A stretch of DNA of 64,000 nt, from positions 4,259-68,258 of the forward strand of contig JAZUGE010000057.1 in the NCBI GenBank assembly GCA_045641045.1. Reading direction: 5' to 3'. Below, one piece after another: positions 5,084 to 63,425 of the stretch. A program made the translations under genes and the position numbers. This DNA is from Treponema sp. Lineage in GTDB: Bacteria > Spirochaetota > Spirochaetia > Treponematales > Treponemataceae. Within the stretch, counting starts at the first letter, position 1, and each line of letters opens with the position of its first letter. The notes under the pieces were generated by a model. The model did not search any database and was not told the origin of the DNA. It saw nothing but the letters and a program-made list of their open reading frames with translations.

Positions 5084-5344
5084 CTAATTTTTCCAGTATT
5101 GTGTGCAATCAGGCTTTCTTGATAAAAGTTTTCGTGTTATTAGCTCGCGCCGCAGCATTGTCGGATTCATAAAACAATGATTGTCGCTGATAACTCTTGT
5201 TATTTCAATTTCTTTATAAATAATACCTTTTTCAAACTTACCTGCAAGATACTCACAAACAAGCTGCTTGTCTTCATTAGAGTTTGGCCAGGCAATTACT
5301 TTTCCGTCTTTATCAAGATATTTTTCGACACCTTCTTTTAACAT
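5084..5344 (-). CDS. DUF2087-family small protein
   Basis: Pattern WP...K.LV.EYLA.KFE.G..Y.E.EI...LRRELI...LL.R..D...YW; AGGA SD. Confidence 0.7.
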   Translation of the reverse strand: MLKEGVEKYLDKDGKVIAWPNSNEDKQLVCEYLAGKFEKGIIYKEIEITRVISDNHCFMNPTMLRRELITRKLLSRKPDCTQYWKN

Positions 5345-5381
5345 AGCTTTTCCTTTTTTTTAATTAAGACAACAAATTAAG

Positions 5382-5413
5382 AAAAAAAGCATATCTGCGT
5401 TACACAGATATGC
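5382..5413 (-). terminator. Intrinsic terminator after the hisA-hisIE fusion gene
   Basis: Stem GCATATCTG/CAGATATGC followed by T7 on the minus strand. Confidence 0.75.
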
Positions 5414-5429
5414 CTTCTTTATTTATTGA

Positions 5430-6728
5430 TTATTTTTTATGGCGTTTATCAAGCTCGTTATAAACATCCTGCCAGTTAACGCCTTCTTTATACATAAGAA
5501 CACTTACAAAGTATAAAAGGTCAGCTGCTTCCCAGATTACATCTTCTTTTGTCTCTGCATCATCTGTAAGTTCTTCGGCTTCTTCCATTACCTTTTCGCG
5601 AACCCGCTTATCATCAAGGGTTGCTGTGTAACTGCCTGATCTTGGATTTGCAAAGCGCTCTGAAATTGTACCGTAAAGGCGCTCCAAAGTTGATTTTTCA
5701 TCAGCTTCGCTGCCAAAGCAGGTCCAGCTGCCTGTATGACAGGCAGGGCCATGTGGTATTACAGTTGCAAGTACAGTATCTCTGTCACAATCAACACGAA
5801 GCTTTACAACTTCAAGATAATTACCGCTTGTTTCACCTTTAGTCCACAATACATTGCGTGTACGACTAAAGAATGTAAGCTTGCCTGTTTCAAATGTTTT
5901 TTCAAAGGCCTCTTTATTGCTGTAACCCATCATTAAAACCTCGCCGTTTACACTTTGAGCTATAACAGGTATCATGCCGTTTACTTTTTCAAAATTAAGA
6001 CAATTAATAAATGAGTCTTTAAGGCTCACAGCACCTGTATACAATGCCATACCAAGCTGAACATCACATCCTAGCTTTTCAAGCTCTGCAATCTGTTCAA
6101 GACTGTTTACACCACCAGCCGCAACAACACGGCATTTAACTGCACTGCGTAATGCACGGCAGGCATCCATATCAGTACCCTGCATACAGCCTTCTTTTTC
6201 GACACAGGTAAATAAAAGCTCACTACAGTATTTTTCAGCTTCCTTTGCACCATCAATAAGTGAAATATCAACAGTTTCAGTCCAACCTTTTACAGCAATT
6301 TTGCCATTTATTGCATCAACACTGATAATTATTCGCTGCTTACCAATTGCTTTGTTAAGTTCTTCAAGAAACTCAACATTTAAAACTGATTCGCCCTGTT
6401 TAGGAGATGGGTTCCAGGCTGCGCTTCCGATAATTACTTTTTCAGCACCAAGACTTATAAGTTCTTTTGCCTTTTTCACATCACGGATACCACCACCAAC
6501 ACGCACGTTGCCATGATGGAGAAGATGCTTTAAAAGCTGAGTATTTTTTGTATTACCCTTTTCGTCTGTATGGCGCATTGCCTGATCAAGGTCAATAATT
6601 GCAACCTCGCCATATTTGTTAAACTCTGCAATGAGTGCATCTGCATCATCTCTTTGCAAAACCAAGTCTTTTCCATTTTTTAGCTGGACAACGTGTCCAT
6701 CTTTTAAGTCTATTGAAGCGATTACCAT
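5430..6728 (-). CDS. hisA/hisIE: Fused HisA (ProFAR isomerase) - HisI (PR-AMP cyclohydrolase) - HisE (PR-ATP diphosphatase)
   Basis: N-terminal IASIDLKDGHVVQL...VGGGIR...VIIGS...SVD TIM barrel; FFSRTR..LWTKGETSG and DCDRD...ACHTG..TCF (HisI); KVMEEAEE...WEAADLLYF (HisE). Confidence 0.9.
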   Translation of the reverse strand: MVIASIDLKDGHVVQLKNGKDLVLQRDDADALIAEFNKYGEVAIIDLDQAMRHTDEKGNTKNTQLLKHLLHHGNVRVGGGIRDVKKAKELISLGAEKVIIGSAAWNPSPKQGESVLNVEFLEELNKAIGKQRIIISVDAINGKIAVKGWTETVDISLIDGAKEAEKYCSELLFTCVEKEGCMQGTDMDACRALRSAVKCRVVAAGGVNSLEQIAELEKLGCDVQLGMALYTGAVSLKDSFINCLNFEKVNGMIPVIAQSVNGEVLMMGYSNKEAFEKTFETGKLTFFSRTRNVLWTKGETSGNYLEVVKLRVDCDRDTVLATVIPHGPACHTGSWTCFGSEADEKSTLERLYGTISERFANPRSGSYTATLDDKRVREKVMEEAEELTDDAETKEDVIWEAADLLYFVSVLMYKEGVNWQDVYNELDKRHKK

Positions 6729-6734
6729 ACCGTG

Positions 6735-6763
6735 AGTATACTAAAATGAATAAATATACACAA
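6735..6763 (-). promoter_or_regulatory. Sigma70-type promoter, probably leaderless (hisA-hisIE)
   Basis: Minus strand TTGTGT-N17-TATACT-N6-ATG; no SD. Confidence 0.7.
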
Positions 6764-7064
6764 TTATGCTAAAGACTTTTATAAATGCTTAATTTAACAA
6801 CTTATGGTCTTTTATCAACATCTTCTTTCGCTATTTATAAAATATAATCATCTATTATCAAAATATTTATTTTCATATTAAATAATGATTTCAATATTAC
6901 TTAAAGTAACTTTTTTTTACAAACTTTTATCTGTTTTTTATTCCTTTAAAACTATATACTTTATTCTGGCTCTAATAACGCTTTATTAACATTTTGTTAT
7001 TTGAGTTTTAATTAAGACATAACAAAACATTTTAGTTTGTATTTGTATTGGAGGCTTTTCAATC

Positions 7065-43883: not shown

Positions 43884-43920
43884 AAAAACCCGCAGCAATC
43901 TGTTGTGGGTTTTTATTTTT
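43884..43920 (+). terminator. Intrinsic terminator after the SDR gene
   Basis: AAAAACCCGCAGCA/TGTTGTGGGTTTTT stem (G-U pairs) plus a T-run. Confidence 0.7.
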
Positions 43921-45655
43921 TTAAGTCTTTTTTCTTCGTTAAAAGCTTTTCAAACGAATCTTTATCAAGAGGTTTTGAGTAGTAAAAACCCTGAATACTA
44001 TCGCAACCCATACCTTTTAGTAGTTCAACTTGTTCTTTTTTTTCAACACCTTCAGCAGTGACATGTATACCTAAATCTTTGGACAGCATTATCAAATGCT
44101 TAACTAAAGTTTTTCCATTCTCGCTAGTCAGATAATCAATTATGCTCTTATCAATTTTTAAATTATCAAAATGTAAAGATGTCAAAGATGATAGAGAAGA
44201 ATATCCAGAACCAAAATCATCAAGGTGCAGTATAAATCCTGTAGAGTGAAACATATTTACTATGAATCTGATTTCTTGATTGTTTATTGCTGCACTTTCT
44301 GTTATCTCGATAGGTACATATCCCGGATTAAGTCCTATACGATCAATAATCCATCTATATTTACTGACTATATTTCTAAAAAATAAGCTTACACGAGACA
44401 AATTTATTGAAACAGGCACTATGTCAAACCCATCTAACAGCCATTTCTTCTGCTGATGGCACACAGTCCTAAAAATATACTCATCTAATTCTTTAATTTT
44501 TCCGTTTCGCTCAAATAGAGGGATAAATACTTCAGGCTTTTCAATACAATTTTCTGACCTCCGCCATCTGACAAGGGCTTCAGCGCCCACAATTCTATTA
44601 TCAGGTGCATATTTTGGCTGATAAAAAATTTGAAAAGCATTATTTTCAAGAGCATCCTTAAATGAGTCATCTAAAAGCTTTTCATAATATAACCGTCTGG
44701 TATCTTCAATATTAAAAAAACTCCAGTTTACATTTTTATCTTCTTTTTTCTTTTTTGAGGCTGCCACTGCCTCACTATATGCAAGTTCAATCTTTTTTTC
44801 TGGTTTCCAGATTGATATTCCAAAATATGGATTTAACTGAGGTAATTTCAAATCTATCAAACACGTTCTTACTAAAAAGGACACTTTTTTTATGAGTTTT
44901 TCAACATATTCCTGTTCCTGTCCAGCTACAAATATAACAAACCTATCCGCATTAATGTGCCCTGCTGTATCATACTCTTCATCTAACACCTCACAAAGAC
45001 ACTCCCATATCTTGGCGATAAAAACATCACCTTTTGCTATATCATAATACGAATTAATAAGCTTAAAGCCATTTATATCAAACGATATAATAAACCCTTT
45101 TTCATTTAGCTCTAAAACCTTTGCTTTAAAAAGATTATAATTAGCTCCATTTGTTATTGGATCAATATATGCAAATTGTTCTATTTCATGCTTATGTGCA
45201 TTATCTGAGGCTACTCTTCGACCAGTCATCTCTCGTGATATAGCGATACCAAAAATGTCACCGCTTTCATCCTGTATCATAGTTACGCTTAGAGCAACAT
45301 AAACTGATTTTCCATCAAATGAGTCTGTCCAAAATTCAAAAAATGATTCTCGAAAACCACTGTTCCATCTGCGCATCAAAGTAACACACGGTTCATCAAA
45401 AAAAGAGTATTCTCTCCTGTATTGATTAGGAATCATCAATAATTTCCATTTATAACAAAGTTCTGTTAATGAACAGTTTTCTGGTAGCCCTAATTTTTCA
45501 AGAACTGGTTGTTTTTTTTGAGATGAATCAAAAGTATATAAATTGCCTAATAATTTGTCTTTTGTAATATTAAAATATACATAACCAACAGCATCGTTAA
45601 GCATAGATGAGAGTAAAATATTATTTTTATCACTTACTAGCTGTTCAAAAGTCAT
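43913..45655 (-). CDS. Degenerate-GGDEF / EAL c-di-GMP phosphodiesterase
   Basis: GGDEF site replaced by NADRF; EAL domain intact (GAEALVRW, EITES, LDDFGSGYS, KIDKS, AEGVE, QGFYYSKP). Start moved to ATG 45655, after GAGGA. Confidence 0.9.
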   Translation of the reverse strand: MTFEQLVSDKNNILLSSMLNDAVGYVYFNITKDKLLGNLYTFDSSQKKQPVLEKLGLPENCSLTELCYKWKLLMIPNQYRREYSFFDEPCVTLMRRWNSGFRESFFEFWTDSFDGKSVYVALSVTMIQDESGDIFGIAISREMTGRRVASDNAHKHEIEQFAYIDPITNGANYNLFKAKVLELNEKGFIISFDINGFKLINSYYDIAKGDVFIAKIWECLCEVLDEEYDTAGHINADRFVIFVAGQEQEYVEKLIKKVSFLVRTCLIDLKLPQLNPYFGISIWKPEKKIELAYSEAVAASKKKKEDKNVNWSFFNIEDTRRLYYEKLLDDSFKDALENNAFQIFYQPKYAPDNRIVGAEALVRWRRSENCIEKPEVFIPLFERNGKIKELDEYIFRTVCHQQKKWLLDGFDIVPVSINLSRVSLFFRNIVSKYRWIIDRIGLNPGYVPIEITESAAINNQEIRFIVNMFHSTGFILHLDDFGSGYSSLSSLTSLHFDNLKIDKSIIDYLTSENGKTLVKHLIMLSKDLGIHVTAEGVEKKEQVELLKGMGCDSIQGFYYSKPLDKDSFEKLLTKKKDLKK

Positions 45656-45784
45656 GCAATAAGTCCTCAAATATATTTTAATTCTTTACTTAGCATTTTT
45701 AAAAGAAATATACTGTTATAATATGTACTCCACTTTTACTATGTACTTTACAAATCACTTAAAATGTTTTTTTATTTAAAAACT

Positions 45785-47062
45785 ATGATAGATGTTTACA
45801 TTTTTGATTGTGATGGAGTAATTATTGATTCAGGAACTGATATTGCAGATGGAGTTAATGCTGCTTTACGAAATTTTGGGTACTGGACATTACCTCAGGC
45901 AGATATAATCTCCTTTGTAGGAGATGGAGCCAAGATGCTTATTTTAAGAGCTTTAATGGCTTCAACAAAAAATCATTTTAATCAGGATAATGTACAAGAG
46001 CTTGAAAAAGTATATAGCTGGTATCTTGATTACTATCATAGTCATGCAGTAATTAAAACAACCCTTTACGCCGGTATAAAAGAATTACTGAAAGTTCTTA
46101 AACAAAAAAACAAAAAAATAGGCATGCTAACAAACAAACCTGGTAATATAGCCCGTAAAATACTACATCAATTAGATGTCGAACAATTTTTTGATGTAAT
46201 AACTGGACCAGAAGACATTTTCAATAAAAAACCTGATCCAGAAGGACTGAGTTTCACTGTGACAAAAATAAATGAACTATACGGAACTAACTATACAAAC
46301 CAAAATGTCATTATGATTGGAGACAGTAAAGTTGATATCCAGGCCGGAAAAGCGTATGGTTGTAAGACTTGTGCCTGTCGTGGAGGCCTTGGCAATACAC
46401 AGGAATTATTAGCTCAAAACGCAGATTTATGCTTTAGTGTAGCAAGTGAAATTGAAAAATTTATTGACATACTGTCCATGAACCCTGATGAGTATACATG
46501 GATGCAAAAGTTTGCAATGAAAAATGAAGTTCCTATAATGATTGACGAAGGCTCTGACTTTATATGCGACTACATTATCAAAAACAACATAAAGACCATC
46601 TTAGAAATCGGAAGTGCAATTGGTTATTCATCAATTAAATTTGCAAAATTAAATGATGAAATAAAAGTCACAACAATTGAGATTGATAAAGATCGTTATA
46701 CAGCCGCCTGTAAAAATATTCAGGACAATGATCTTACAAACCGTATTACAATTTATCACGGAGATGCTTTAACATATCCAATCGAAGGTAAATATGATTT
46801 AATTTTCATTGATGCTGCAAAAGCTCAATATATAAAGTTCTTTGAACGGTATAAAGAAAACCTCACCCAAGATGGAGTAATAATAAGTGATAACCTGTCT
46901 TTCCACGGAATGGTTGAAGATTTAAGTCTTACACATAATTACAGCACAATTAAGCTTGTAAAAAAAATTCGCAAATACATAGACTTTTTAAAAACAAATA
47001 GTGAGTTTGACACTACATTTTACAAAGTTGGAGATGGGGTCTCAATCAGTAAAAAGGTATGA
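45785..47062 (+). CDS. Fusion of HAD phosphatase (Gph-like) and O-methyltransferase (TrmR/YrrM-like)
   Basis: FDCDG, LTNK, KPDPE, IGDS..D (HAD); NEVPIM...LEIGSAIGYS...FIDAAKAQY...SDNL (class I O-MTase). Alternative start at 45764. Confidence 0.8.
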   Translation: MIDVYIFDCDGVIIDSGTDIADGVNAALRNFGYWTLPQADIISFVGDGAKMLILRALMASTKNHFNQDNVQELEKVYSWYLDYYHSHAVIKTTLYAGIKELLKVLKQKNKKIGMLTNKPGNIARKILHQLDVEQFFDVITGPEDIFNKKPDPEGLSFTVTKINELYGTNYTNQNVIMIGDSKVDIQAGKAYGCKTCACRGGLGNTQELLAQNADLCFSVASEIEKFIDILSMNPDEYTWMQKFAMKNEVPIMIDEGSDFICDYIIKNNIKTILEIGSAIGYSSIKFAKLNDEIKVTTIEIDKDRYTAACKNIQDNDLTNRITIYHGDALTYPIEGKYDLIFIDAAKAQYIKFFERYKENLTQDGVIISDNLSFHGMVEDLSLTHNYSTIKLVKKIRKYIDFLKTNSEFDTTFYKVGDGVSISKKV

Positions 47063-47075
47063 CAATAAACAGCCA

Positions 47076-47104
47076 TTGATACAGAAGTTAAATTGCAATA
47101 AAAT
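47076..47104 (+). promoter_or_regulatory. Sigma70-type promoter of proS, near-leaderless
   Basis: TTGATA-N17-TAAAAT-N8-ATG; no SD. Confidence 0.6.
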
Positions 47105-47112
47105 ATGTAATT

Positions 47113-48936
47113 ATGAAAACTTCTCAATCATATATTTCCACACTACGTGACGCACCTGCAGAAGCAGTAATTACAAGTCACAAGCTTATGATTCGTGCGG
47201 GATTAATCCGCAAATTAGGAAACGGACTTTATACATACCTTCCATTGGGTTTCCGTTCCCTTATGAAACTTGAAACAATTATCCGTCAGGAATTAGATGC
47301 ATCTGGCGCACTTGAATTTAAACCCACAGTAATAGTTCCAGGAGACATCTGGAAAGAGTCTGGACGTTGGGAAACAATGGGACCTCAGATGTTAAAGGCT
47401 AAAAATCGTGGAGAACAAGATATGGTTGTCTCTCCAACTGCAGAAGAAGCATACACAGCCATTGTTCGAGATGCATTAACATCATATAAGCAGCTTCCTG
47501 TTAACTTTTATCAGATTAATACAAAATATAGAGACGAAATCAGACCTCGCTACGGAGTTATGCGTGGTCGTGAGTTTATCATGATGGACGGCTATACAAT
47601 GAACGCTGATGATGAGTCTCTAGATCAGTCATATCAGGCCTATGCAAAGGCATACCACCGTATTTTCAAGCGTCTTGGTCTCAAAATTATCCCAGTTAAG
47701 GCTGACTCAGGAGCTATGGGTGGTAATGGTTCTGAAGAGTTTATGATTGAAAGTCCTATTGGTGATGACACACTTATTATCTGTCCAGATTGTGGATATG
47801 CTGCAAATGTTGAAAAAGCTCCATGTAAACTTGATGGAACTCCAACTCCAAAAACAGAAACAGCAATTGAAGATATTGCAACTCCAAACGTTTTCTCAAT
47901 TGAAGATATGGAAAAATTCTTCAATATGAAATCTACAAATTTTGTAAAAGCTCTGGTTTACAAAGCTGAAAATGTAGGATTAGATCTCTCAAAAGCTCCA
48001 CACTGTGAAAACCTCAAGCTTGTAAAAGATCCAAGTGGTAATTATTATCCTACTGCATATTTTGTTGTTCTAATTCGTGGAGACCTTGATGTTAACGAAG
48101 CTAAACTTGCAGCAACACTTAAAGCAAGTTCTGTTGAACTTGCCAGTGATGAAGAAGTAGTTCAGATTGCAGGAGCCGGACATGGTTTTGTAGGACCTGT
48201 AACAAGCAAAGCACCTTTAATTGTTGACTACTCTGTAATTTCATCTGCTGAAGATGGAACATATGTAGCACAGATGCACGATGCTATTGCAGGTGCTGGT
48301 AAAGATGGTTTCCATATTAAGCATGTTGAACCTCTCCGTGACTTTACACCTTATATAAATGCTGATGTTCGTACTGTAAAACCAGGTGATAAATGTGCCT
48401 GCTGTGGCGGTACATATTATCAGAAGAAGGGTAACGAACTTGGACATATTTTTAAGCTCGGACAAAAATACACAAAGAGCATGCATGTTTCTTTCTTAGA
48501 CGTAAACGGAAAGTCTCAGACCCCAACAATGGGATGTTATGGTATTGGTGTAGACCGAACACTTGCAAGCATCATAGAAACTCACAGTGATGAAAAAGGT
48601 ATAATATGGCCAATGAGTGTTGCTCCTTACCAAGTTTGTATTGTTCCTATTAAGTATGAAGGCTCAATGAAAGACGTTGCTGATAAGCTTTATGATGAAC
48701 TCACAAAAGCTGGTATTGAAGTACTTCTTGATGACCGCAACGAACGTCCAGGTGTTAAGTTCAATGATATGGAACTTATTGGTATACCTTTACGCATTAC
48801 TGTTGGCGAAAAAAGTTTACCAAATGTTGAGTTTAAGCCACGTTCAGCTTCTGAAGCTCAGTTAGTACCTTCTGAACAGGCTGCTGCAAAAGCAGTAGAA
48901 TTTGTTAATGCAGCTCTTGCAGAACTTAACGCATAA
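47113..48936 (+). CDS. proS: Proline--tRNA ligase (bacterial type with editing insertion)
   Basis: PTAEE, YQINTKYRDEIRPRYGVMRGREF, ELGHIFKLGQKY, MGCYGIGVDR, anticodon domain LDDRNERPGVKF. Confidence 0.97.
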   Translation: MKTSQSYISTLRDAPAEAVITSHKLMIRAGLIRKLGNGLYTYLPLGFRSLMKLETIIRQELDASGALEFKPTVIVPGDIWKESGRWETMGPQMLKAKNRGEQDMVVSPTAEEAYTAIVRDALTSYKQLPVNFYQINTKYRDEIRPRYGVMRGREFIMMDGYTMNADDESLDQSYQAYAKAYHRIFKRLGLKIIPVKADSGAMGGNGSEEFMIESPIGDDTLIICPDCGYAANVEKAPCKLDGTPTPKTETAIEDIATPNVFSIEDMEKFFNMKSTNFVKALVYKAENVGLDLSKAPHCENLKLVKDPSGNYYPTAYFVVLIRGDLDVNEAKLAATLKASSVELASDEEVVQIAGAGHGFVGPVTSKAPLIVDYSVISSAEDGTYVAQMHDAIAGAGKDGFHIKHVEPLRDFTPYINADVRTVKPGDKCACCGGTYYQKKGNELGHIFKLGQKYTKSMHVSFLDVNGKSQTPTMGCYGIGVDRTLASIIETHSDEKGIIWPMSVAPYQVCIVPIKYEGSMKDVADKLYDELTKAGIEVLLDDRNERPGVKFNDMELIGIPLRITVGEKSLPNVEFKPRSASEAQLVPSEQAAAKAVEFVNAALAELNA

Positions 48937-54714: not shown

Positions 54715-54753
54715 AAAAAACGTCCAGTTAAAATAAATTCAACCAGACGTTTT
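54715..54753 (-). terminator. Intrinsic terminator after the ABC solute-binding protein gene
   Basis: Minus strand AAAACGTCTGGTT...AACTGGACGTTTTTT. Confidence 0.7.
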
Positions 54754-54790
54754 CAACAATTAAATTAGGATAAAACTAATCTAAGTTATT

Positions 54791-56365
54791 TTATTTAATA
54801 AGGCGAGCATCCTTAGCAAGCTGAACACCTTCAGCTTCCCATGCAGCACCACCGAGCTTATCAAAGTCAGCAACAAATGCCTTCCAGTTAGCTGGTGTAA
54901 GTTCACGCTTACCTGTCATAAATTCTGCGATACCCTGTTCGTAGAATCTCTTAAGGTCAGCACTTGGGTTAGGCATCTTATCCTGACCTACACATGCTGT
55001 CCATGGCTTAGACTGCATTTCACGGAGAGCTACGAGAGCTGACATCTTCTTTCCAGAAGGTGTTGTGTATGTTGGATAGCGAGAAGCTAATTCAACATCA
55101 CCGTTGAAGTATACCATGTTACGGAGCTGTGTTAATGGCTGGTTTTCAGACTTAGAGTAAGCCTTTGATGGATCTGCAAGACCATCAGCTACAGGAACAC
55201 CCTGAGCGTTCTTTACGTAGTTGATTCCTTCCTGACCCCAACCACAGAGGTAGTAACCTTCATCTGAGCTCATCCATTCAAGGAGACGGCAGATAGCATC
55301 TTTCTTACCAGCTTTTTCTGCCTTAGCAGATACAGCATACATACGGTAAGCCTGTGAGTATGTACCACATGATGCATTACCCTTTGGACCCTTTGGAGGG
55401 TTAGCAATGATGAAAGAACCATTAGGGAAGTTCTTATCAAATGGACCGTAGTTTGATTCAGCTGCATAAGCAGCATTCTGTTCACGGAAAATACCAAAAC
55501 GACCCTGCTTCCATGAAGCACGGAAGTCATCTTTCTTATATGCGAGCCAGTTTGGATCGATAACCTTTGCATCGATAAGCTTCTTCATATAAACCATTGC
55601 ATCATAGTATTCTGGCTTGTGGATGTTAAGACCAGCTGTCTTAACTGAAGAAAGGTTCCATGTACCAGCTACACCAAATGCACCGAAGATTGGATCAAAG
55701 CGGCGACCAAGACCTTCGTTTGGACCTGAAAGTTCAAGGTATCCACCATAACCGTATGTATCATCTTTTCCGTTTCCATCAGGATCTTTGAAAGTAAATG
55801 CTTTCATTACTTCAAAGTAATCATCTGTTGTTACAGGAACAGCGAGACCGAGCTTATCAAGCCAGTCTTTGCGGATTAATACACCTTCGTTACGAACGAT
55901 TGAACCTGGCTGAGCAAGTGCGTATGAATGACCGTCTGTATGTGTTGTAAATGCAATTGAATCCTTATCATAAAGCTTTGCTGTACGATTTGGCATCTTT
56001 GCATACATATCATCAACACGAGCCAAAAGCTTCTGCTTGATGAGCATTGTGTATGTGTTGCTTGAAATCATGAAAAGATCAGGAAGAGCATTAGCTGCAC
56101 CTGCAGCGTTGATCTTTGTATCCTGGTCTGTTTCGCTTGATGGGAGAGCTGATAACTTAAGGTTGATCTTAAGCTTATCTCTGATAATCTGGTATCCAAC
56201 CCAGTCAGCTGGGATTGGACCTGCTTCTGTTACAGCTGCACCGTACCAAAGTTCGAGGTCAGTTGTACCGTCTTTGTTTGTTTTTGCTTTTGGAGCAGCA
56301 AATGAAGGTGCTGCTACGCTAAGAACTACAGCTGCTAAAGCGAGGTTCTTAAATAAGTTATTCAT
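54791..56365 (-). CDS. Carbohydrate ABC transporter extracellular solute-binding protein (LplA/YtcQ-like)
   Basis: Signal peptide; LIRKDWLDKLGLAVPVTTDDY..VMKAF..KDPDGNGKDDTYG signature. Confidence 0.9.
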   Translation of the reverse strand: MNNLFKNLALAAVVLSVAAPSFAAPKAKTNKDGTTDLELWYGAAVTEAGPIPADWVGYQIIRDKLKINLKLSALPSSETDQDTKINAAGAANALPDLFMISSNTYTMLIKQKLLARVDDMYAKMPNRTAKLYDKDSIAFTTHTDGHSYALAQPGSIVRNEGVLIRKDWLDKLGLAVPVTTDDYFEVMKAFTFKDPDGNGKDDTYGYGGYLELSGPNEGLGRRFDPIFGAFGVAGTWNLSSVKTAGLNIHKPEYYDAMVYMKKLIDAKVIDPNWLAYKKDDFRASWKQGRFGIFREQNAAYAAESNYGPFDKNFPNGSFIIANPPKGPKGNASCGTYSQAYRMYAVSAKAEKAGKKDAICRLLEWMSSDEGYYLCGWGQEGINYVKNAQGVPVADGLADPSKAYSKSENQPLTQLRNMVYFNGDVELASRYPTYTTPSGKKMSALVALREMQSKPWTACVGQDKMPNPSADLKRFYEQGIAEFMTGKRELTPANWKAFVADFDKLGGAAWEAEGVQLAKDARLIK

Positions 56366-56443
56366 TATTTCCTCCTTTTTAGAAATCTATAATAACCATT
56401 TTGTTTTTTGCTCCGTAAAAAAAAATTTTTACAAGCTTTTAAC

Positions 56444-56492
56444 ATTATATCATAAAAAAATGGTCAGGCATAACAATATTTTATACCTGACC
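56444..56492 (-). terminator. Terminator-like hairpin after the permeases, overlapping an extended -10 element for the binding-protein gene
   Basis: Minus strand GGTCAGGTATAA/TTATGCCTGACC plus ATTTTTTT, immediately followed by TGATATAAT (56452-56444). Confidence 0.6.
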
Positions 56493-56517
56493 GTTTAATT
56501 TTAGTATAAAAGTGTCA

Positions 56518-57408
56518 TTAACCCTTTACTGAACCCAGCATAGTACCCTTTGTGAAGTACTTCTGGATAAATGGATATGCTATCATCATAGGAATAGCTG
56601 ACATAAATACTGATGCAGCTTTAATAGCCTGAACAGGAGCATTACCAAAAGCATTTACTTCAACGTATTCGTTCATACCGCTTGCCATAAGAATGTTGCG
56701 GAGAAGGATAGGAAGAGGGTTAAGGTCTGCTTCATTTAAGTAAAGCATAGCGTGCATAAAGTCATTCCAGAAGTTAACTGCATAGTAAAGACCAATTGTC
56801 ATGATAATTGGCTTTGACAATGGAAGAATGATTGAAAGAAGAACGTACCACTCTGCTGCACCATCGATACGAGCTGATTCTTTAAGTGATTCAGGAATAC
56901 CTTCAAAGAATCCGCGCATAATCAAACAGTTATATGTACCAATTGCACCTGGCATAAAGATTGCTGCAAGGTGGTTAGTCATATGAAGATTTGTAATAAC
57001 AAGGTATGTTGGTATCAAACCGATGTTAAACAAATAAGGAATGATTACAAAGTAATTTAAAATCTTACGTCCTGGTAAATCATGTACAGACATACAGTAG
57101 GCCATTGGAACTGTAAGGAACAAAGCTGTGATAACACCAAATGACATAATCTTCATTGAGTTCCAGAAAGCCATAATAAAGCCGTTGTTGCCTAACAGTG
57201 CAACATAAGCATCCTTACGCCATTTCCATACAGGGAGGAACATTGATTCAAGATTTGAACCAATAAAGTCATTTGGACGTACAGACTGAGTGATTGTTGA
57301 CCACATTGGGATTGCAATTGCAAGTCCGATAAAAATAAGGAACAGGTTAACACAAATATAGAATGTTCTATCACCTGCTGTGAGTTTTACTGTCTTTGGT
57401 TTTTCCAT
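56518..57408 (-). CDS. Carbohydrate ABC transporter permease (LplC/YtcP-like)
   Basis: EAA-like loop IPESLKESARIDGA, FWNDF, PFIQKYFTKG...GSVKG. Confidence 0.92.
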   Translation of the reverse strand: MEKPKTVKLTAGDRTFYICVNLFLIFIGLAIAIPMWSTITQSVRPNDFIGSNLESMFLPVWKWRKDAYVALLGNNGFIMAFWNSMKIMSFGVITALFLTVPMAYCMSVHDLPGRKILNYFVIIPYLFNIGLIPTYLVITNLHMTNHLAAIFMPGAIGTYNCLIMRGFFEGIPESLKESARIDGAAEWYVLLSIILPLSKPIIMTIGLYYAVNFWNDFMHAMLYLNEADLNPLPILLRNILMASGMNEYVEVNAFGNAPVQAIKAASVFMSAIPMMIAYPFIQKYFTKGTMLGSVKG

Positions 57409-57425
57409 ATCGTTATTTCCTTATA

Positions 57426-58367
57426 CTACAGTAATGATGATTCTGTAATCTTCTTAACAACCTTGTTTGAAATCATAACAAGGAGCATACCAATGATACC
57501 CTTAAAGATACCTACTGCAGTTGCAAGAGCAAATTCAAACTGAAGAAGACCCTGACGGTAAACCCATGTATCAATAATATCTGCTACTGAGTAAACTGGA
57601 ACAGAGTACAACATGAACATCTGGTTGAAACCAGCATCAAGTACAGTACCGAGCTTAAGAAGTACTACAGTTACGATTACAGGCTTAATTGAAGGGATTG
57701 TAATGTACCATACACGCTGTACAGCAGAAGCACCTTCAACCATAGCTGCTTCAAAGAGTGAAGGGTCAATACCCATTAATGCAGCGATAAAGATGATAGC
57801 TGCCCAACCCATTTCCTTCCATGCATCAGAAATTACAACTACTGCAGGGAAAGTTCCTGTATTTGTAAGGAAGTCAATTGGTTCACCACCACAGAACTTA
57901 ATAAGATCATTCAAAATACCATCACCAGGAGCTAAAAGTACAAGAAGAATACCGTACATAATTACCCATGAAAGGAAGTGTGGTAAATATACAAGTGTCT
58001 GAACAACTCTGCGGAGAATGTCACGAGTACATTCGTAAAGAGCTACAGACAAAATAATTGAAAGTGGTACACAGATACAAAGCTTTGCTAAAGAATAAAG
58101 AATTGTATTGCGAAGAAGTTCACCAAAATAGAATGAATGGAAAAAATTTGAAAAGTTTTTGAATCCAATCCACTGGCTGCCCCATACACCATCAACAGCA
58201 GCAAAATCTTTAAATGCAATCTGACCGTTTACGATTGGACCATACTTCATTATAGCATAGTACACAACTGGTATTGCGAGCAGTGCATAAACAGAAAAAT
58301 GTCTCTTAATATCCTTCCAAAGATCTTTCTTTGGAGCGGTAAGAACAGTTGTTTCTTGTGCGTTCAT
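57426..58367 (-). CDS. Carbohydrate ABC transporter permease (LplB/YteP-like)
   Basis: WIGFKNF, YLPHFLSWV, WKEMGW, IDPSLFEAAMVEGA, DIIDTWVY..GL. Start moved to ATG 58367, after GAGG. Confidence 0.92.
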   Translation of the reverse strand: MNAQETTVLTAPKKDLWKDIKRHFSVYALLAIPVVYYAIMKYGPIVNGQIAFKDFAAVDGVWGSQWIGFKNFSNFFHSFYFGELLRNTILYSLAKLCICVPLSIILSVALYECTRDILRRVVQTLVYLPHFLSWVIMYGILLVLLAPGDGILNDLIKFCGGEPIDFLTNTGTFPAVVVISDAWKEMGWAAIIFIAALMGIDPSLFEAAMVEGASAVQRVWYITIPSIKPVIVTVVLLKLGTVLDAGFNQMFMLYSVPVYSVADIIDTWVYRQGLLQFEFALATAVGIFKGIIGMLLVMISNKVVKKITESSLL

Positions 58368-58445
58368 TTCTAACCTCAGTTTACACATATTAGCAATTTG
58401 TCTTAAAAATTTACTTGTATCTTATTGGACAATACCGTCATAAAT

Positions 58446-61400
58446 CTATTGTTTCTGACGAATCTTTCCTGGTGGTACACCGTAAATCTTCTTGAATACA
58501 CGGCAAAAGTATGCCTGATCCTGAAAACCTGAATTCTCAGCAATCTCATATATAGTGGCATTTGTTTCCAAAAGCATTTTTGTAGCCAGATATATACGAT
58601 ATCTGTTGAGATACTCCCATAGTGACAATCCGATTTCCTTATGAAAGATACGTGTAAGATAGTCTTCACTAACATGTACTGTATCTGCCAGTTTCCATCG
58701 TACAATCTGCTGGGAAGCATTTTTATTCAAATACAAAATGGCTTTTTTTACCAGCGCTCCCGTGTGAGGAGGTAGTATTTCATCACCATTTAATATTGCA
58801 TGAACACGATCATTAAACTGATCCGACTCAGCAGCACCTCTGTTACACAGGATAATGCGTGGATGAGAGCAAAGCAGTTCAACCTGTTCTTCTGACAAAA
58901 TTGTGTCCGGAAGAACTATAATCGGAACAAGAACAGTTTTATTGTTCTGTCTTATTTTCTTTATGCTCGCTTCGTCAATTGTTTCAAAAACAATGAGAGA
59001 AGGCTTTATTTCACTCAATATGCGGTCAAAATCTTCCATTGAAGGAATACTAACGCTGTTACTGTCAGTTGCCCACGTGCCGTACCGGGTATGCTTTGCA
59101 TTAACAAATAAAACCGGTGCAGACTTTTGTGTTCTAACCTTTTGTTCAAGCATCTCAACAAAACTATGCCCAACAAGATTATGGCTATAACAAATAACAG
59201 GTGAACGGAATAAGTTTTCATAATGTCTCAGGCTATATACTTTAATCCATTCATCAATAGGAGCTTCATCAGGCTCCCAGTACAAAAGATTTGCACTTTC
59301 AGGAGTTGTATCCTCCAGCATTTCTTTTGTAACCTGACTAACATCCATATGAAAAATCTGTTCATTTTGTGCTTTACCTGACAAGCTGTACACCCTGCTG
59401 ATTTTATTTACAGGCTTTACAGGTGGCATACCAGAAAGATTAGGCCATGGTAATATTATTGTAGCAGATGTTTCAGATTTAACAACTGTACCGTACTGCA
59501 ATAATATGATTTTTTCAGCCAGCAAAAGCTCAGCTTTTGTCCAGTCCAGATTTGAAGATTCAATATATATCTCAAGACCATCAACTTCAGCAGTTACGGA
59601 CATCACAGTCCCTGTATATTCAAATATTGTCTGAAGAGCTTTTTTAAGACGGTCTGGATCTCCGTATAAAAGAGGCAAATCTGTATCTATTGCTGCAACT
59701 GCACTGCCTGGCAATACCTGACGGATATCAAAAAGCTTTTTATCCATAGGCAGATCATCAACCTGAGATCTTGTTAAATCAACAAGAGTTTCAGTTTTTT
59801 CCAACTGGGCTTCAATCTGACTCTTTAAAAATATCAACTGCTCACTAAGAATATCCTGATCAAGAATTCCCTTATCAACATTAAGCTCCATTTGAGTTAC
59901 TTTCGAAGATAAGTCTTTGAGTGGATCACAAAGGTCACTGCCGACATTTGCAAAAAACTCAGTCTTTGCAAACTCAGCCTGCTCAGCAATACGTTTTGCA
60001 TTTGTAGTCTCTTCAAAAAGGAAAATACTCTGCAATGTAGAACTTATTGTCGAACGCAGGTCCTCATATATACTTCCATCACAGTCTGAGTAACCACAGA
60101 TTACATATCCTAGCGGCTGATTTTCCATAAATAATGGCTGAACAACGAATGTACCGACATTAAATTTTTCAGCCTGTTTCGCAGGCACTAAAAGTTTTGC
60201 AGGAAAAAGAACTTCTTCATTATTCAAAATTCCTGCATCATCAAAACCACCAACAAATCTTGAAAAGCTGTCATTTTCATACAAAACAACAGAAACACTT
60301 CGTATACCTATAGTTGGTAAATGAATAGACAGTTTTTTTATAAGACTTTCACGGTCATGAACGCTCAATAAATCGCTTTTAAGTGCACTCATAATACTGC
60401 TGATATATTTATTGTCATTAAACTTTGATGCACTTACACGGCCCTGAATCTGTGAAATCATAATATTGATTGTACGTATTACTTTACTTACGTACTCTCT
60501 GGACAGGCTGTTTGATGATCGTAAAATACTTATAGCAGTAAAAAGACGTGTCAGCTCATAATCTTTATTAAAATATATATTGAGATAGTTACTTAATAAA
60601 TTGAATAAAGTTGCCTGGTCATTTTCAAATAATGCATCTAAAAGCCCTTCAATAATATTTTCAATGTTATCGCTATAACATCTGAACTGATCTACAAGTT
60701 CCTGTGTTATTTCATTACGTGAACGTGAAAAAACCTTTGGCTCTGGGGATGATACCCATGACTTAAGATTGTTACAGCCACAGCTTTCACGTACAACAGA
60801 GTATGCAGCTAACGAAATATCCTGAACACTCCTAGTACCACAATAAACCTGGTTTATCTGGTTATAGGCTTCCAGACCAAGCTCTTCATATGGCATATGC
60901 ACAGTAGACAGCGGTGAGTTAAATACATGACATTCAACACTGTCATTAAAACCAGATACAAGTAAATCACGGGGAACCTTAAAACCACGCTGCTCCAGCC
61001 ATTTTACAGCACTAAATGACATCATATCACTACAGCACACAAGAGCATCAAAATCTGTTCCAGGAACTAACCCTCTGTCTTCGTATAGCTCTCTTATAGC
61101 AGCTTCACCGTTACTCCAGCTTACATTTGTACTGACAAGCTTTAATACATCATCACTATAAAGTCCAGACTCTTTTAAAGCATCAAGATAAGCTTTAAAA
61201 CGCTCCTCGGCAGAAGAGTGGTTTAGGGGACCTCTGATAAAAGCTATTTTTTTACACCCATGCACTTTTATAAAATGCTGAACAAGCTCTTTCATGCCTG
61301 TATATGCATCAAAGTTTACACATGGATAATTTTTTATTTTCTGTCCTATTGTTACAAAAGGGATATCACTAAACGTATCGTGAAAACGTTCAAGTTCTTC

Positions 61401-61658
61401 GGCAGTTACAGAACCACCTATACTCGAAGCCCAGCTGATAACACCATCAAGATTTTGAGAATTAGCCAGTGAGTATACACTGTTTCTCAAATACTCAGAT
61501 CCTTTCTGATTATCTAAACGTCCACCAGGAAAAATAAAAAATGCTCCGCTTTGCCTTGATGCATGCGCAGCAAGATTAAGCCAAAGCTTTAAAGAAGATC
61601 CTGTGTGTATTGATGCCAGAATAAATCCGGTTTTTTTACCAGTATGATTTGATTTCAT
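58446..61658 (-). CDS. Cytoplasmic hybrid regulator: LacI-type sugar-binding domain + degenerate His kinase + degenerate receivers + AraC HTH
   Basis: IAFIRGP..H..AEERF.AY, ALVCCSDMM, VPRDLLVSGFND, VVRESCGC (LacI-type sensor); KTEFFANVGSDLCDPL (H-box without His); C-terminal SEDYLTRIF...GFQDQAYFCRVFKK (AraC). Confidence 0.85.
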   Translation of the reverse strand: MKSNHTGKKTGFILASIHTGSSLKLWLNLAAHASRQSGAFFIFPGGRLDNQKGSEYLRNSVYSLANSQNLDGVISWASSIGGSVTAEELERFHDTFSDIPFVTIGQKIKNYPCVNFDAYTGMKELVQHFIKVHGCKKIAFIRGPLNHSSAEERFKAYLDALKESGLYSDDVLKLVSTNVSWSNGEAAIRELYEDRGLVPGTDFDALVCCSDMMSFSAVKWLEQRGFKVPRDLLVSGFNDSVECHVFNSPLSTVHMPYEELGLEAYNQINQVYCGTRSVQDISLAAYSVVRESCGCNNLKSWVSSPEPKVFSRSRNEITQELVDQFRCYSDNIENIIEGLLDALFENDQATLFNLLSNYLNIYFNKDYELTRLFTAISILRSSNSLSREYVSKVIRTINIMISQIQGRVSASKFNDNKYISSIMSALKSDLLSVHDRESLIKKLSIHLPTIGIRSVSVVLYENDSFSRFVGGFDDAGILNNEEVLFPAKLLVPAKQAEKFNVGTFVVQPLFMENQPLGYVICGYSDCDGSIYEDLRSTISSTLQSIFLFEETTNAKRIAEQAEFAKTEFFANVGSDLCDPLKDLSSKVTQMELNVDKGILDQDILSEQLIFLKSQIEAQLEKTETLVDLTRSQVDDLPMDKKLFDIRQVLPGSAVAAIDTDLPLLYGDPDRLKKALQTIFEYTGTVMSVTAEVDGLEIYIESSNLDWTKAELLLAEKIILLQYGTVVKSETSATIILPWPNLSGMPPVKPVNKISRVYSLSGKAQNEQIFHMDVSQVTKEMLEDTTPESANLLYWEPDEAPIDEWIKVYSLRHYENLFRSPVICYSHNLVGHSFVEMLEQKVRTQKSAPVLFVNAKHTRYGTWATDSNSVSIPSMEDFDRILSEIKPSLIVFETIDEASIKKIRQNNKTVLVPIIVLPDTILSEEQVELLCSHPRIILCNRGAAESDQFNDRVHAILNGDEILPPHTGALVKKAILYLNKNASQQIVRWKLADTVHVSEDYLTRIFHKEIGLSLWEYLNRYRIYLATKMLLETNATIYEIAENSGFQDQAYFCRVFKKIYGVPPGKIRQKQ

Positions 61659-61799
61659 AAATACTAAACCTTTACAATTATTTTATATGGATGTCGCTTT
61701 TTGCTCAATAAGACAGTTTTATCCAAATGACAAAAATAAACAAAATTTTATCGGTTTTTATCAAAAAAGTGACATTTATTACCATAGAAGATATCAAGT

Positions 61800-61840
61800 T
61801 AATCAGATATAACTTAGATATCTATAATTATATCTGATTA
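61800..61840. promoter_or_regulatory. Nested palindrome upstream of uxaB, candidate operator
   Basis: TAATCAGATATAA (61800-61812) and TTATATCTGATTA (61828-61840) flank an inner palindrome TAGATATCTA (61815-61824). Confidence 0.65.
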
Positions 61841-61862
61841 GACTCATTGGAGGTTCTAAATC

Positions 61863-63425
61863 ATGGCTTTGAAGTCAATTAAAGACGTTGTAAAGACTGT
61901 ACAGCGCCCAGAAAAAATTCTTCAGTTTGGTGAAGGTGGATTCCTTCGTGCATTCGTTGACTGGCAGATTGATATTGTTAACGAAAAGACAGATTTTAAC
62001 GGTAACATCGTAATTGTTCAGCCACTTGAAAAAGGTATGATCGATGCAATGAACGATCAGAACAACCTTTATACAACAGTTCTTCGTGGTATGAAAGACG
62101 GTAAACCAACAGTTGAAACACGTACAATCAACTCAATTAGCCGTTCTATTAACCCATATACAAACTATGACGACTACATTGCTCTGGCTTCAAGCCCAGA
62201 TCTTCGCTTTGTTGTATCAAACACAACAGAAGCTGGTATCCGTTTCGACACTGAAATCAATGGTGAGCCAGTTACTCTTGATCAGAAGCCACAGAAAAAC
62301 TTCCCAGCAAAAGTAACAGCATTCCTTTATAAGAGATTCCAGGCATTTAACGGCGATACATCAAAGGGTCTTATCCTTATTCCTTGTGAACTTTCAGACC
62401 AGGCAGGTCTTAACCTCCGCATAAACATACTCCGCTATGCTGAAATGTGGCAGCTTGGACCAGACTTCATCAACTGGTTTGACGAAGCTTGTGATGTTTG
62501 TTCATGTCTCGTTGACCGTATTGTTCCAGGTTACTTCCCACTTCTTTCAAAAGATGAAAACGGTAAGACACAAGCTGAAAACATCTGCGAAAACCTTGGA
62601 TACGAAGATAAGCTCCTTGACTCAGCTGAACTTTTCCACTTCTGGGTTATCGAGTCTAAAAAGTCACATGAAGATGAACTCCCACTCGTTAAGGCAGGTC
62701 TTAGCGTTAAATGGGTTCAGAACATGGACTACTACCACACACGTAAAGTTCGCATCTTAAATGGTGCTCACACATCTTCAGTACTTGCTGCATTCCTTGC
62801 TGAATGTAACTACGTACAGGATATCGTATGTGCTGACAAAGTTGGTTCAGGTTTCAACACACCAAACGCAGATGCAAACAAGTTTATGCACGATGTTATT
62901 TTCAACGAAATTATTCCTTCAATCAACGGTGATCAGGAAGACCTTAAGGGTTATGCAAATGATGTATGGACTAGATTCCAGAACCCATTTAACCCACACC
63001 GCTTAATTGAGATTTCATTAAACTCAGTTGCTAAGTACTGGACACGCTGTCTCCCATCAGTAACTCAGTACATTGCTAAAAACGGATCAGTTCCAAAGCT
63101 CCTTTCATTCTCTATTGCAGCTCTTATCGCTTTCTATAACGGTACAGAGATCAAGACAGACGAAAAGGGTGCTAAATTCCTCGAGTCTAAGAGAGAATCT
63201 GGTGTTTATCCAAACAAGGATACAATGCCTGTTCTTGAGTTCTTTGCTGCTCTCAACAAAGAAACAAAAGATGCAAAGGTTATTGCTAACAGAGTTCTTT
63301 CAAATGTTGACTTCTGGAAGGAAGACCTTACAAAGTACGAAGGTCTCGAAGCAAGTGTTGCAGCAAACCTCGCAGACATTCAGTCTAAAGGTATGAAAGC
63401 TGCTTTAGCTGATATCGTAAAGTAA
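61863..63425 (+). CDS. uxaB: Tagaturonate reductase (altronate oxidoreductase)
   Basis: PEKILQFGEGGFLRAFVDW, VSNTTEAGI, IPCEL, LVDRIVPG, RKVRILNGAHT, RFQNPF. Confidence 0.93.
   Translation: MALKSIKDVVKTVQRPEKILQFGEGGFLRAFVDWQIDIVNEKTDFNGNIVIVQPLEKGMIDAMNDQNNLYTTVLRGMKDGKPTVETRTINSISRSINPYTNYDDYIALASSPDLRFVVSNTTEAGIRFDTEINGEPVTLDQKPQKNFPAKVTAFLYKRFQAFNGDTSKGLILIPCELSDQAGLNLRINILRYAEMWQLGPDFINWFDEACDVCSCLVDRIVPGYFPLLSKDENGKTQAENICENLGYEDKLLDSAELFHFWVIESKKSHEDELPLVKAGLSVKWVQNMDYYHTRKVRILNGAHTSSVLAAFLAECNYVQDIVCADKVGSGFNTPNADANKFMHDVIFNEIIPSINGDQEDLKGYANDVWTRFQNPFNPHRLIEISLNSVAKYWTRCLPSVTQYIAKNGSVPKLLSFSIAALIAFYNGTEIKTDEKGAKFLESKRESGVYPNKDTMPVLEFFAALNKETKDAKVIANRVLSNVDFWKEDLTKYEGLEASVAANLADIQSKGMKAALADIVK

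Follow-up and report, generated by a model that had tools for sequence, protein, structure and literature searches.

Two-component signaling is defined by His-to-Asp phosphotransfer. In the hybrid two-component systems (HTCS) of Bacteroides, such as BT4124 or the fructose sensor BT1754, whose sensor has the periplasmic-binding-protein (PBP) fold, a sensor, a dimerization and histidine-phosphotransfer domain (DHp), a catalytic ATP-binding domain (CA), a receiver (REC) and an AraC-type helix-turn-helix (HTH) follow one another in one chain, and the protein controls an adjacent carbohydrate-utilization locus. In these proteins the kinase core is a fused dimer, to which the DNA-binding domains are tethered, and the fused receiver keeps the AraC domain in an inhibitory contact that is relieved by phosphorylation; a S/CHIP motif in the alpha3-beta4 loop of the REC, paired with D/K in the DNA-binding domain, marks the family (PMC11253607). 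Here we describe a regulator of 1070 aa, encoded by the open reading frame (ORF) 58446-61658 (-) of a 64,000-nucleotide stretch of a Treponema sp. of the gut or rumen (assembly GCA_045641045.1, contig JAZUGE010000057.1, positions 4,259 to 68,258; hereafter the window). The models place DHp, CA, REC and AraC HTH folds in that same order in its single chain, and it has kept none of the residues on which a phosphorelay depends.

The comparison with the Bacteroides HTCS shows several differences. The Treponema regulator is soluble, its LacI-type sensor is cytoplasmic rather than periplasmic, and the phosphotransfer residues are all lost; furthermore, three parts are additional, namely a helical bundle, a GAF-like domain and one more receiver-like domain. 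The host belongs to the Spirochaetota, and the presumed target is an ABC importer, not a SusC/D polysaccharide-utilization locus. The S/CHIP motif is absent from the REC loop of the regulator, which reads NKTVLVPII (RLVPVLL in its intact relatives). Since the motif is missing and the HTH is nearest to the YesN/AraT type, the Treponema lineage is a parallel to the Bacteroides HTCS and not a member of that family.

Other described systems resemble parts of this protein. E. coli XylR (PDB 4FE4/4FE7) is a cytoplasmic one-component activator in which a LacI/PBP-fold sugar domain drives an AraC DNA-binding domain, but in its 392 aa the two domains are adjacent, whereas the regulator interposes about 670 residues (helical, GAF, DHp, CA and two REC-like domains). 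The YesM/YesN pairs of Firmicutes control LplABC-like importers of the same type, with a large binding protein and two permeases, and YesN and AraT are the structurally nearest relatives of the regulator's HTH; however, YesM/YesN are two proteins, a membrane PF06580 His_kinase and a functional receiver, instead of one chain. The pseudo-receivers of plant PRRs, Rim15p, ShkA and CikA share with the regulator the D->E and K->R replacements and the lost acidic pair. DivL, in turn, has a DHp-CA fold without the phospho-His, although it retains the CA domain, which in the regulator has lost the ATP lid. In contrast to these pseudo-receivers and pseudo-kinases, kinase and receiver are here dead together in one chain that ends in a fused AraC HTH output. 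A further group of close systems is formed by intact soluble relatives found in this work (P0182, P0195, P0211, P0239 and others; 1150-1330 aa), with the order Peripla_BP_3, HisKA, HATPase_c, Response_reg and HTH_18. Their sensor module is that of the regulator and their genes, too, have ABC sugar importers as neighbors, in one case within a pectin-type locus; unlike the regulator, they retain H, N, DxGxG, GxGxG, DD, D, S/T and K. A literature search of incomplete coverage returned no description of soluble LacI-sensor hybrid systems or of dead derivatives, which is absence of evidence only. The regulator thus unites a pseudo-kinase and a pseudo-receiver in a single chain, and it belongs to a soluble HTCS-like lineage that seems not to have been described before.

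The two ends of the regulator are clear, and at least 184 homologues of about 1065 aa share its architecture. Pfam places Peripla_BP_1/3 at residues 9-272 and HTH_18/HTH_AraC at residues 990-1068, and the NCBIfam and PDB sequence searches concur with it on both ends. The LacI-type sensor proposed in an earlier reading of this DNA, made from the sequence alone (the sequence-only reading), reaches 73.1 (PF13377) and 63.6 bits (PF00532), above the gathering cut-offs of 26.5 and 22.2, and LacI-family structures match it with values up to 5e-21. The AraC HTH is intact, as that reading had also stated, with 76 bits against a cut-off of 33.6 (PF12833/PF00165), and Foldseek superposes it on the AraT, YesN, MarA and AraC domains with a root-mean-square deviation (rmsd) of 1.1-2.2 A. 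In a Pfam scan no LacI-type N-terminal HTH (PF00356) was matched; the binding domain begins at residue 9. There is no signal peptide in the regulator, whose N-terminus leads directly into the first strand of the sensor, nor any transmembrane segment, the highest Kyte-Doolittle mean over 19 residues being 1.17. With no hydrophobic segment and an N-terminus that directly enters the binding domain, the protein is therefore cytoplasmic, in agreement with what had been proposed.

The middle of the protein (residues 300-970) was more demanding. Pfam found no domain in it, and three separate pieces searched at E<=10 gave noise only, so that sequence models alone cannot settle its identity; PF02518 and PF00512 did not match the regulator, nor did PF00072 match its second receiver-like domain. 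A family-alignment profile compared with PDB sequences was uninformative for the middle, because LacI and AraC matches swamped the output. Searched genome-wide, the HATPase_c model found 24 kinases in the host's own genome, the regulator ORF not being among them. Residues 300-970 were modeled with AlphaFold2 (AF2) from an alignment of 42 sequences. The model (mean pLDDT 84) showed a helical bundle (314-430), an alpha/beta domain (436-522), a long helical hairpin (528-632), a small alpha/beta domain (641-736) and two more alpha/beta units (755-959). Its best Foldseek matches in the PDB were DHp-CA structures, with E of about 1e-6 to 1e-7 and probability 1.0. The top one was HK853 (6rh7_A; E 3e-7, probability 1.0, 236/238 target residues aligned), followed by AdeS, SrrB, CusS, YycG, HprS and the pseudokinase DivL. 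For residues 745-1070, another model (pLDDT 85.8, pTM 0.70) gave AraC-type proteins as its best matches, first the C-terminal domains of AraT and YesN (rmsd 1.1-1.6 A), and it also matched the receiver RR468 over 130 columns.

Homology searches led to the same domains. An exhaustive phmmer search with residues 300-970 gave 491 representative proteins. In Pfam, P0184 and P0195 carry Peripla_BP, HisKA, HATPase_c, Response_reg and HTH_18, and P0171 combines a like sensor with HisKA, HATPase_c, REC and Hpt; in P0156, P0175 and P0178 HisKA alone is still detectable, and P0139 and P0140 are shorter proteins. Over 1068 columns, the profile of the Treponema family could be aligned end to end with a profile made from 14 proteins that retain the His (hhalign probability 100, 31% identity). 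Locally, the DHp matched the intact relatives with a probability of 99.4% (E 6e-22), the first receiver-like domain matched the corresponding region of the intact relatives with 97.2%, and the second matched their Pfam-positive REC with 97.4%; the first-receiver region of the intact relatives itself resembles REC2 (probability 87.9). In addition, when the family DHp profile was run against the host's own genome, the best weak matches were genuine kinases, at their H-boxes. The middle of the regulator is thus predicted to have HisKA, HATPase and REC folds. The sequence-only reading had named this very scaffold, and the HK853-type DHp-CA and RR468 matches bear it out, so that the result which that reading had named as fatal to itself, a middle without these folds, did not occur; it had missed the helical bundle, the GAF-like domain and the upstream receiver-like domain, which the structure predictions added. 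As a separate observation, the intact relatives (e.g. P0211, residues ~835-960) contain between the CA and the Pfam-detected receiver an extra receiver-like domain unseen by Pfam, with a conserved Asp (W-D), which might accept a second phosphoryl group or might be used for docking.

To compare the catalytic residues, the regulator was aligned with its intact relatives. Every column of the H-box FFANVGSDLCDPL (568-580) has its counterpart in LLANVSHELRTPL of the intact relatives, and Ser574 takes the place of the His. The N-box GDPDRLKKALQTIFEY, aligned to DPxRLRQIlxNLLSNA, has Tyr681 in the place of Asn, and the G1 (DxGxG), F and G2 (GxGxG) boxes are gone with a deleted stretch of about 44 residues. 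At about 96 aa, the CA-like domain is shorter than its counterpart in the intact relatives (about 145 aa). In the second receiver-like domain VLFVNA / LFVNAK is aligned to liVDDD and PSLIVFE to PxLViLD, so that the acidic pair is replaced by N853/A854 and the phospho-acceptor Asp by E892, while P917 stands for S/T and R940 for K. The first receiver-like domain has W-E795 where the intact proteins have W-D. Among 42 sequences of the Treponema family the His column is occupied by S, N, A or G, and there is hardly any variation at E892, P917 and R940; that the substitutions are kept through the whole family argues that the resemblance is not due to chance.

A functional phosphorelay requires an acceptor His, a CA domain with N, G1, F and G2 boxes, and a receiver with DD, D, T/S and K, and the regulator has none of these. 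A pseudo-receiver is recognized by a receiver fold or homology together with the lack of at least one of the five active-site residues, the Asp included; in the second receiver-like domain all five are replaced. The commonest replacements in such domains are precisely the ones found here, D to E, DD2 to N and K to R (PMC12632262). From its sequence, then, the phosphorelay appears to be dead in the Treponema lineage, which has no acceptor His, no ATP-binding lid and no acceptor Asp. The replacement of the H-box His by Ser, the missing N-box Asn and the lost glycines of G1/G2 had all been noticed before and stand. The claim that the receivers lack their acidic pocket was correct for the pair now occupied by N853/A854, but the acceptor position of the second domain is still acidic, with Glu instead of Asp, and a Glu at this site can be a partial phosphomimetic (PMC12632262).

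The dead scaffold is well conserved. Mean identity of the family to the window protein is 90% in the HTH, 72% in the DHp, 68% in the second and 60% in the first receiver-like domain, compared with 54% in the sugar-binding domain, 50% in the CA remnant, 47% in the GAF-like domain and 32% in the helical bundle; the H-box helix, AEQAEFAKTEFFANVGSDLCDPLKDL, hardly varies at all. Constraint is thus stronger on the dead DHp and second receiver than on the sensor, and their folds appear to be under purifying selection rather than decaying, which argues for a continued role in signal transmission or gating. The word fossil, used earlier for the kinase-receiver scaffold, is therefore misleading.

Regarding the distribution, the nearest homologues (about 1065 aa, with the same two Pfam ends) are found in Treponema, namely T. 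pectinovorum, T. zioleckii and many metagenome-assembled genomes from rumen and gut. A scan of species-representative genomes gave 249 related loci, 80 of which were kept for the counts of loci, synteny and taxonomy. Spirochaetota account for 75 of them, including T. berlinense, T. ruminis, T. saccharophilum and T. brennaborense, and the gene was present in 25 of 201 sampled Treponemataceae genomes. The regulator family is essentially confined to the Spirochaetota. The host is a treponeme and not a member of the Bacteroidetes, with whose HTCS the regulator had been compared; a Bacteroidetes origin was considered and rejected on the closest homologues, which are from Treponema, and on the taxonomy of the loci. 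Four bins assigned to Anaerovoracaceae, Collinsella, Parabacteroides distasonis and Lachnospiraceae (L014, L016, L017, L019) carry a complete Treponema-type locus. Horizontal spread to these bins was considered, but identity and gene order fit T. berlinense-type loci, and mis-binning is more likely.

To follow the loss of catalysis, a tree was made of 105 representatives (clusters at 50% identity) on the columns from sensor to DHp, with the H-box removed. The survey of His/Asp retention that had been suggested for the homologues gave 24 catalytically intact and 81 dead proteins, which are interleaved on the tree; the changes of state number at least 8, and the well-supported branches force at least 6. 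The clade of the window protein is large and almost wholly dead. Its sole intact members are Hpt-type hybrid kinases with an H-box of a different flavor, which is more consistent with a recombination of the sensor module onto another transmitter. In a sample of 401 Spirochaetota genomes, queried with P0211, the sensor module was found on intact kinases with other C-termini, on proteins of the methyl-accepting-chemotaxis (MCP) type and on dead AraC forms. No intact form with AraC output was found in this sample at a threshold of 1e-60, a result that holds for a sample and does not prove absence. The intact AraC-type relatives that could be located lie on contigs of 55-62% G+C, and they are thus not close to this Treponema. 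One of them, P0182, adjoins an ABC importer of the same type together with the pectin genes GH28, GH88, GH4 and KduI.

The regulator gene lies between a divergent uxaB and the genes of an ABC sugar importer, with a gap of 57 bp to the first permease gene (Table 1). The order of uxaB, divergent, and then regulator, permease, permease and binding protein is kept in about 60 of the 80 related loci, down to about 40% identity of the regulator, and across loci the neighbors are better conserved (UxaB ~90%, permeases ~85%) than the regulator (~60%). A PfkB gene resembling 2-keto-3-deoxygluconate (KDG) kinases lies 6 kb off, and UxaC and a UxaA-type dehydratase are encoded elsewhere in the genome. 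Control of the importer and of uxaB by the regulator is presumed here, strongly backed by the synteny.

In the intergenic DNA before the regulator (61659-61862), a phylogenetic footprint of 19 orthologous regions revealed a conserved box, TTGAGCAAAAAGCGACATC (61690-61708), which overlaps the candidate promoter of the regulator-ABC operon. In the orthologues the box has the form TTGTAAAAAAAACGACATC and occupies the site of a -35 element, with a spacing of 17 bp to a TATAAT-like hexamer; a TTG-N3-AAAA (TTGTAC-AAAA) repeat lies 18-21 bp upstream of it. A related box faces uxaB (Table 1), and a similar one precedes the unlinked uxaA (G000:C42). As an operator, the box is a lead only. The boxes before the regulator, uxaA and uxaB suggest a small, dispersed hexuronate regulon.

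Table 1. Features of the regulator gene and of its surroundings in the window (res, residues of the regulator).
Feature	Position	Strand	Basis or remark
Whole regulator gene	58446..61658	-	1070 aa plus stop
LacI/PurR-type periplasmic-binding-protein-fold sensor, res 9-296	60771..61634	-	Pfam PF13377 3.8e-20, PF00532 2.7e-17
Predicted helical bundle linker, res 314-430	60369..60719	-	AF2 model helices; least conserved folded part, mean identity 32%
Predicted GAF-like alpha/beta domain, res 436-522	60093..60353	-	AF2 model; Foldseek matches to phytochrome and PDE5/6 GAF
Predicted DHp (HisKA-like) helical hairpin, res 528-632	59763..60077	-	H-box FFANVGS574DLCDPL; hhalign, Foldseek
Predicted shrunken CA-like (HATPase_c-derived) domain, res 641-736	59451..59738	-	Global alignment, Foldseek
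First receiver-like (truncated flavodoxin-like) domain, res 755-845	59124..59396	-	hhalign; W794-E795
Second receiver-like domain (aspartate-less pseudo-receiver), res 849-959	58782..59114	-	N853/A854, E892, P917, R940
AraC/XylS-type double HTH DNA-binding domain, res 965-1070	58449..58766	-	PF12833 2.9e-21
uxaB (tagaturonate reductase), divergent	61863..63425	+	NCBIfam NF002969 555.7 bits vs cut-off 359
ABC sugar importer, downstream	54791..58388	-	Pfam BPD_transp_1 twice and SBP_bac_8
Importer permeases	57426-58388 and 56518-57408	-	BPD_transp_1
Lipoprotein-type binding protein, 524 aa	54791-56365	-	SBP_bac_8
Candidate promoter of regulator-ABC operon	61680..61708	-	TTGAGC-17-TAAAAT, promoter scan
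Related box TTATCAAAAAAGTGACAT facing uxaB	61758..61775	+	Kept in a subset of orthologues only; TTA variant

Taken together, the folds, the homology to intact systems, the loss of all catalytic residues, the conservation pattern, the solubility and the synteny support the reading that we prefer: the regulator is quite probably a phosphorylation-independent, cytoplasmic, sugar-gated AraC activator of galacturonate transport and uxaB genes, derived from a soluble hybrid two-component ancestor. This ancestor would have had the order LacI-type sensor, helical bundle, GAF, HisKA, HATPase_c, REC-like, REC and AraC HTH. What we infer beyond this is which ligand is bound, where the protein sits on the DNA, that it activates and does not repress, and by which allosteric path the signal passes. 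The protein would dimerize through the DHp four-helix bundle and the binding-protein-fold domain, and the LacI-type domain would bind a cytoplasmic sugar, candidates being an intermediate of the galacturonate pathway or an imported galacturonide. The change induced by the ligand would travel through the helical/GAF linker to the DHp coiled coil, the pseudo-receiver, with E892 at the acceptor position, would then shift against the DHp and the AraC domain, and the two HTH domains would be freed or positioned onto direct repeats overlapping the -35 region. The outcome would be activation of the regulator-ABC importer operon, of the divergent uxaB and probably of uxaA.

Several points weigh against this interpretation. 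On the structural side, the match to the RR468 receiver is modest (Foldseek E 0.01, with probability 1.0 and a TM-score of 0.67 on the target), and the inter-domain geometry of the monomer model is uncertain (pTM 0.47 for residues 300-970), so that the proposed relay path lacks structural support. By sequence alone the CA remnant is weak (hhalign 38% over 29 columns round the N-box), and its assignment therefore comes mainly from fold and position. As regards the regulon, uxaC and uxaA are unlinked to the regulator locus, and the candidate ligand is guessed from gene context alone. The box, TTG-N3-AAAAA-N0-3-YGACA, is short: it has 7 matches genome-wide, of which 2, at the regulator promoter and at uxaA, are thematically relevant, the rest falling in a rho terminator hairpin, in coding sequence and upstream of the pyruvate phosphate dikinase gene (PPDK). 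Finally, the count of promoters is no higher than in shuffles.

A different explanation is that the dead kinase/receiver block is a passive dimerization spacer, with direct LacI-AraC coupling as in XylR, or that the protein is a constitutive activator through phosphomimicry by E892, the sugar domain tuning only stability or oligomerization. XylR (4fe4/4fe7), which both ends of the regulator match, needs only the LacI fold and the AraC domain for sugar control, and in shorter relatives (700-860 aa) PBP and HTH remain although a large part of the middle is gone; for the constitutive variant, there is the known behavior of an acceptor-site Glu as a partial phosphomimetic. Nevertheless, an almost invariant H-box helix is unexpected in a passive spacer, the DHp and REC2 outrank the sensor in conservation, and some 670 residues of folded domains part the sensor from the HTH. 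On this balance we think that a mere spacer or a constitutive form is unlikely.

Alternatively, the GAF-like domain or one of the pseudo-receivers could receive a second input, binding another small molecule (a cyclic nucleotide, or cyclic di-GMP as in ShkA) or a partner protein. The GAF-like fold is there, ligand binding by pseudo-receivers has been documented in ShkA and CikA, and GGDEF/EAL proteins are also encoded in the window (ORF 43913-45670). However, we found no nucleotide-binding motif in the regulator, the conservation of the GAF-like domain is only moderate, and this domain and the LacI-type one always form one module placed before varied outputs, which suggests a role as linker or transducer; such an input seems to us improbable. 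That the regulator still takes part in a phosphorelay, by a non-canonical residue, through a separate kinase or as a pseudokinase that modulates another two-component system via its DHp, is hardly credible, for although pseudo-kinases such as DivL, a Foldseek match, dock response regulators and the genome encodes 24 HATPase_c proteins, DHp helix 1 is without any His, the ATP lid is deleted, the acceptor Asp is changed to Glu in both receiver-like domains, the metal-binding pair reads N/A, and no kinase or response-regulator gene is linked in the 80 orthologous loci.

Coming back to the sugar-gated activator, helix 1 of the DHp is the surface on which the receiver docks, as seen in the HK853-RR468 structures. 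A broader and rather doubtful conjecture, which we put forward tentatively, is that the superfamily of soluble hybrid regulators with a LacI-type sensor has repeatedly abandoned phosphotransfer while the DHp and the pseudo-receiver stayed strongly constrained, and that in fused kinase, receiver and DNA-binding proteins the DHp-receiver docking interface can itself be the regulated switch. The docked pseudo-receiver, with Glu in the Asp site, would directly read the conformational signal by which kinase activity was formerly set, and so release or position the AraC domains. If this were true, two-component chemistry would be dispensable once the parts are covalently linked.

The regulator is a relay without any catalytic residue, conserved above its sensor and tied to the same sugar-uptake genes across the Spirochaetota, and it may show how a two-component system can become a ligand-operated one-component switch. 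Its interleaved intact and dead relatives offer a natural series in which the conformational and the chemical share of two-component signaling could be compared, and the same series bears on the origin of one-component regulators from two-component ancestors. The on/off switching of pseudo-receivers was left open in a recent review (PMC12632262), and the regulator bears on this question too. It is also a likely regulator of the uptake of galacturonate or pectin products in rumen and gut treponemes, with cultured carriers in T. pectinovorum, T. saccharophilum, T. ruminis, T. berlinense and T. zioleckii.

Two features of the transcription unit should also be mentioned. Between the genes of the second permease and the binding protein there is a strong 12-bp stem-loop followed by a T-run (56462-56492, minus strand), with a promoter-like TTGTTA-16-TATGAT inside it. 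This element may attenuate transcription or mark a processing site within the operon, and thereby set how much binding protein is made relative to permease. Downstream of the binding-protein gene lies a second hairpin, also terminator-like (54716-54754).

Another aspect concerns the sensor module. The combination of LacI-fold, helical and GAF domains seems to have been taken up again and again in spirochetes as an intracellular sugar sensor, a portable cytoplasmic module wired to kinases, to chemoreceptor signaling domains and to AraC outputs. In several loci (L086, L090, L103, L105, L088 and L092, from genomes G174, G040, G216 and G140) the module is fused to intact histidine kinases in proteins of 1195-1299 aa, and the C-terminal ends of these fusions, judged by their end sequences, look PP2C/SpoIIE-like, GGDEF-like or Hpt-type. 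The host genome itself has a paralogue (L002; G000:C25, ~5231-6782 and upstream) in which the module is joined to a methyl-accepting-chemotaxis domain and which would be a soluble sugar chemoreceptor. This paralogue is split into two overlapping ORFs in different frames, 258-1178 and 1120-2673, near an A7 run, GGGAAAAAAATA, and other Spirochaetota have it as a single ORF (774-843 aa). We are thus dealing with a frameshift, be it from a pseudogene, phase variation or an assembly error. Finally, two proteins of ~740-755 aa encoded in the same genome (G000:C2, ~45130-47395 on the minus-strand index, and C16:6508-8716) gave weak matches (E 4e-5 and 2e-4) to the helical and GAF-like part of the family profile at their own residues 350-610, and they may be more distant users of the transducer module.

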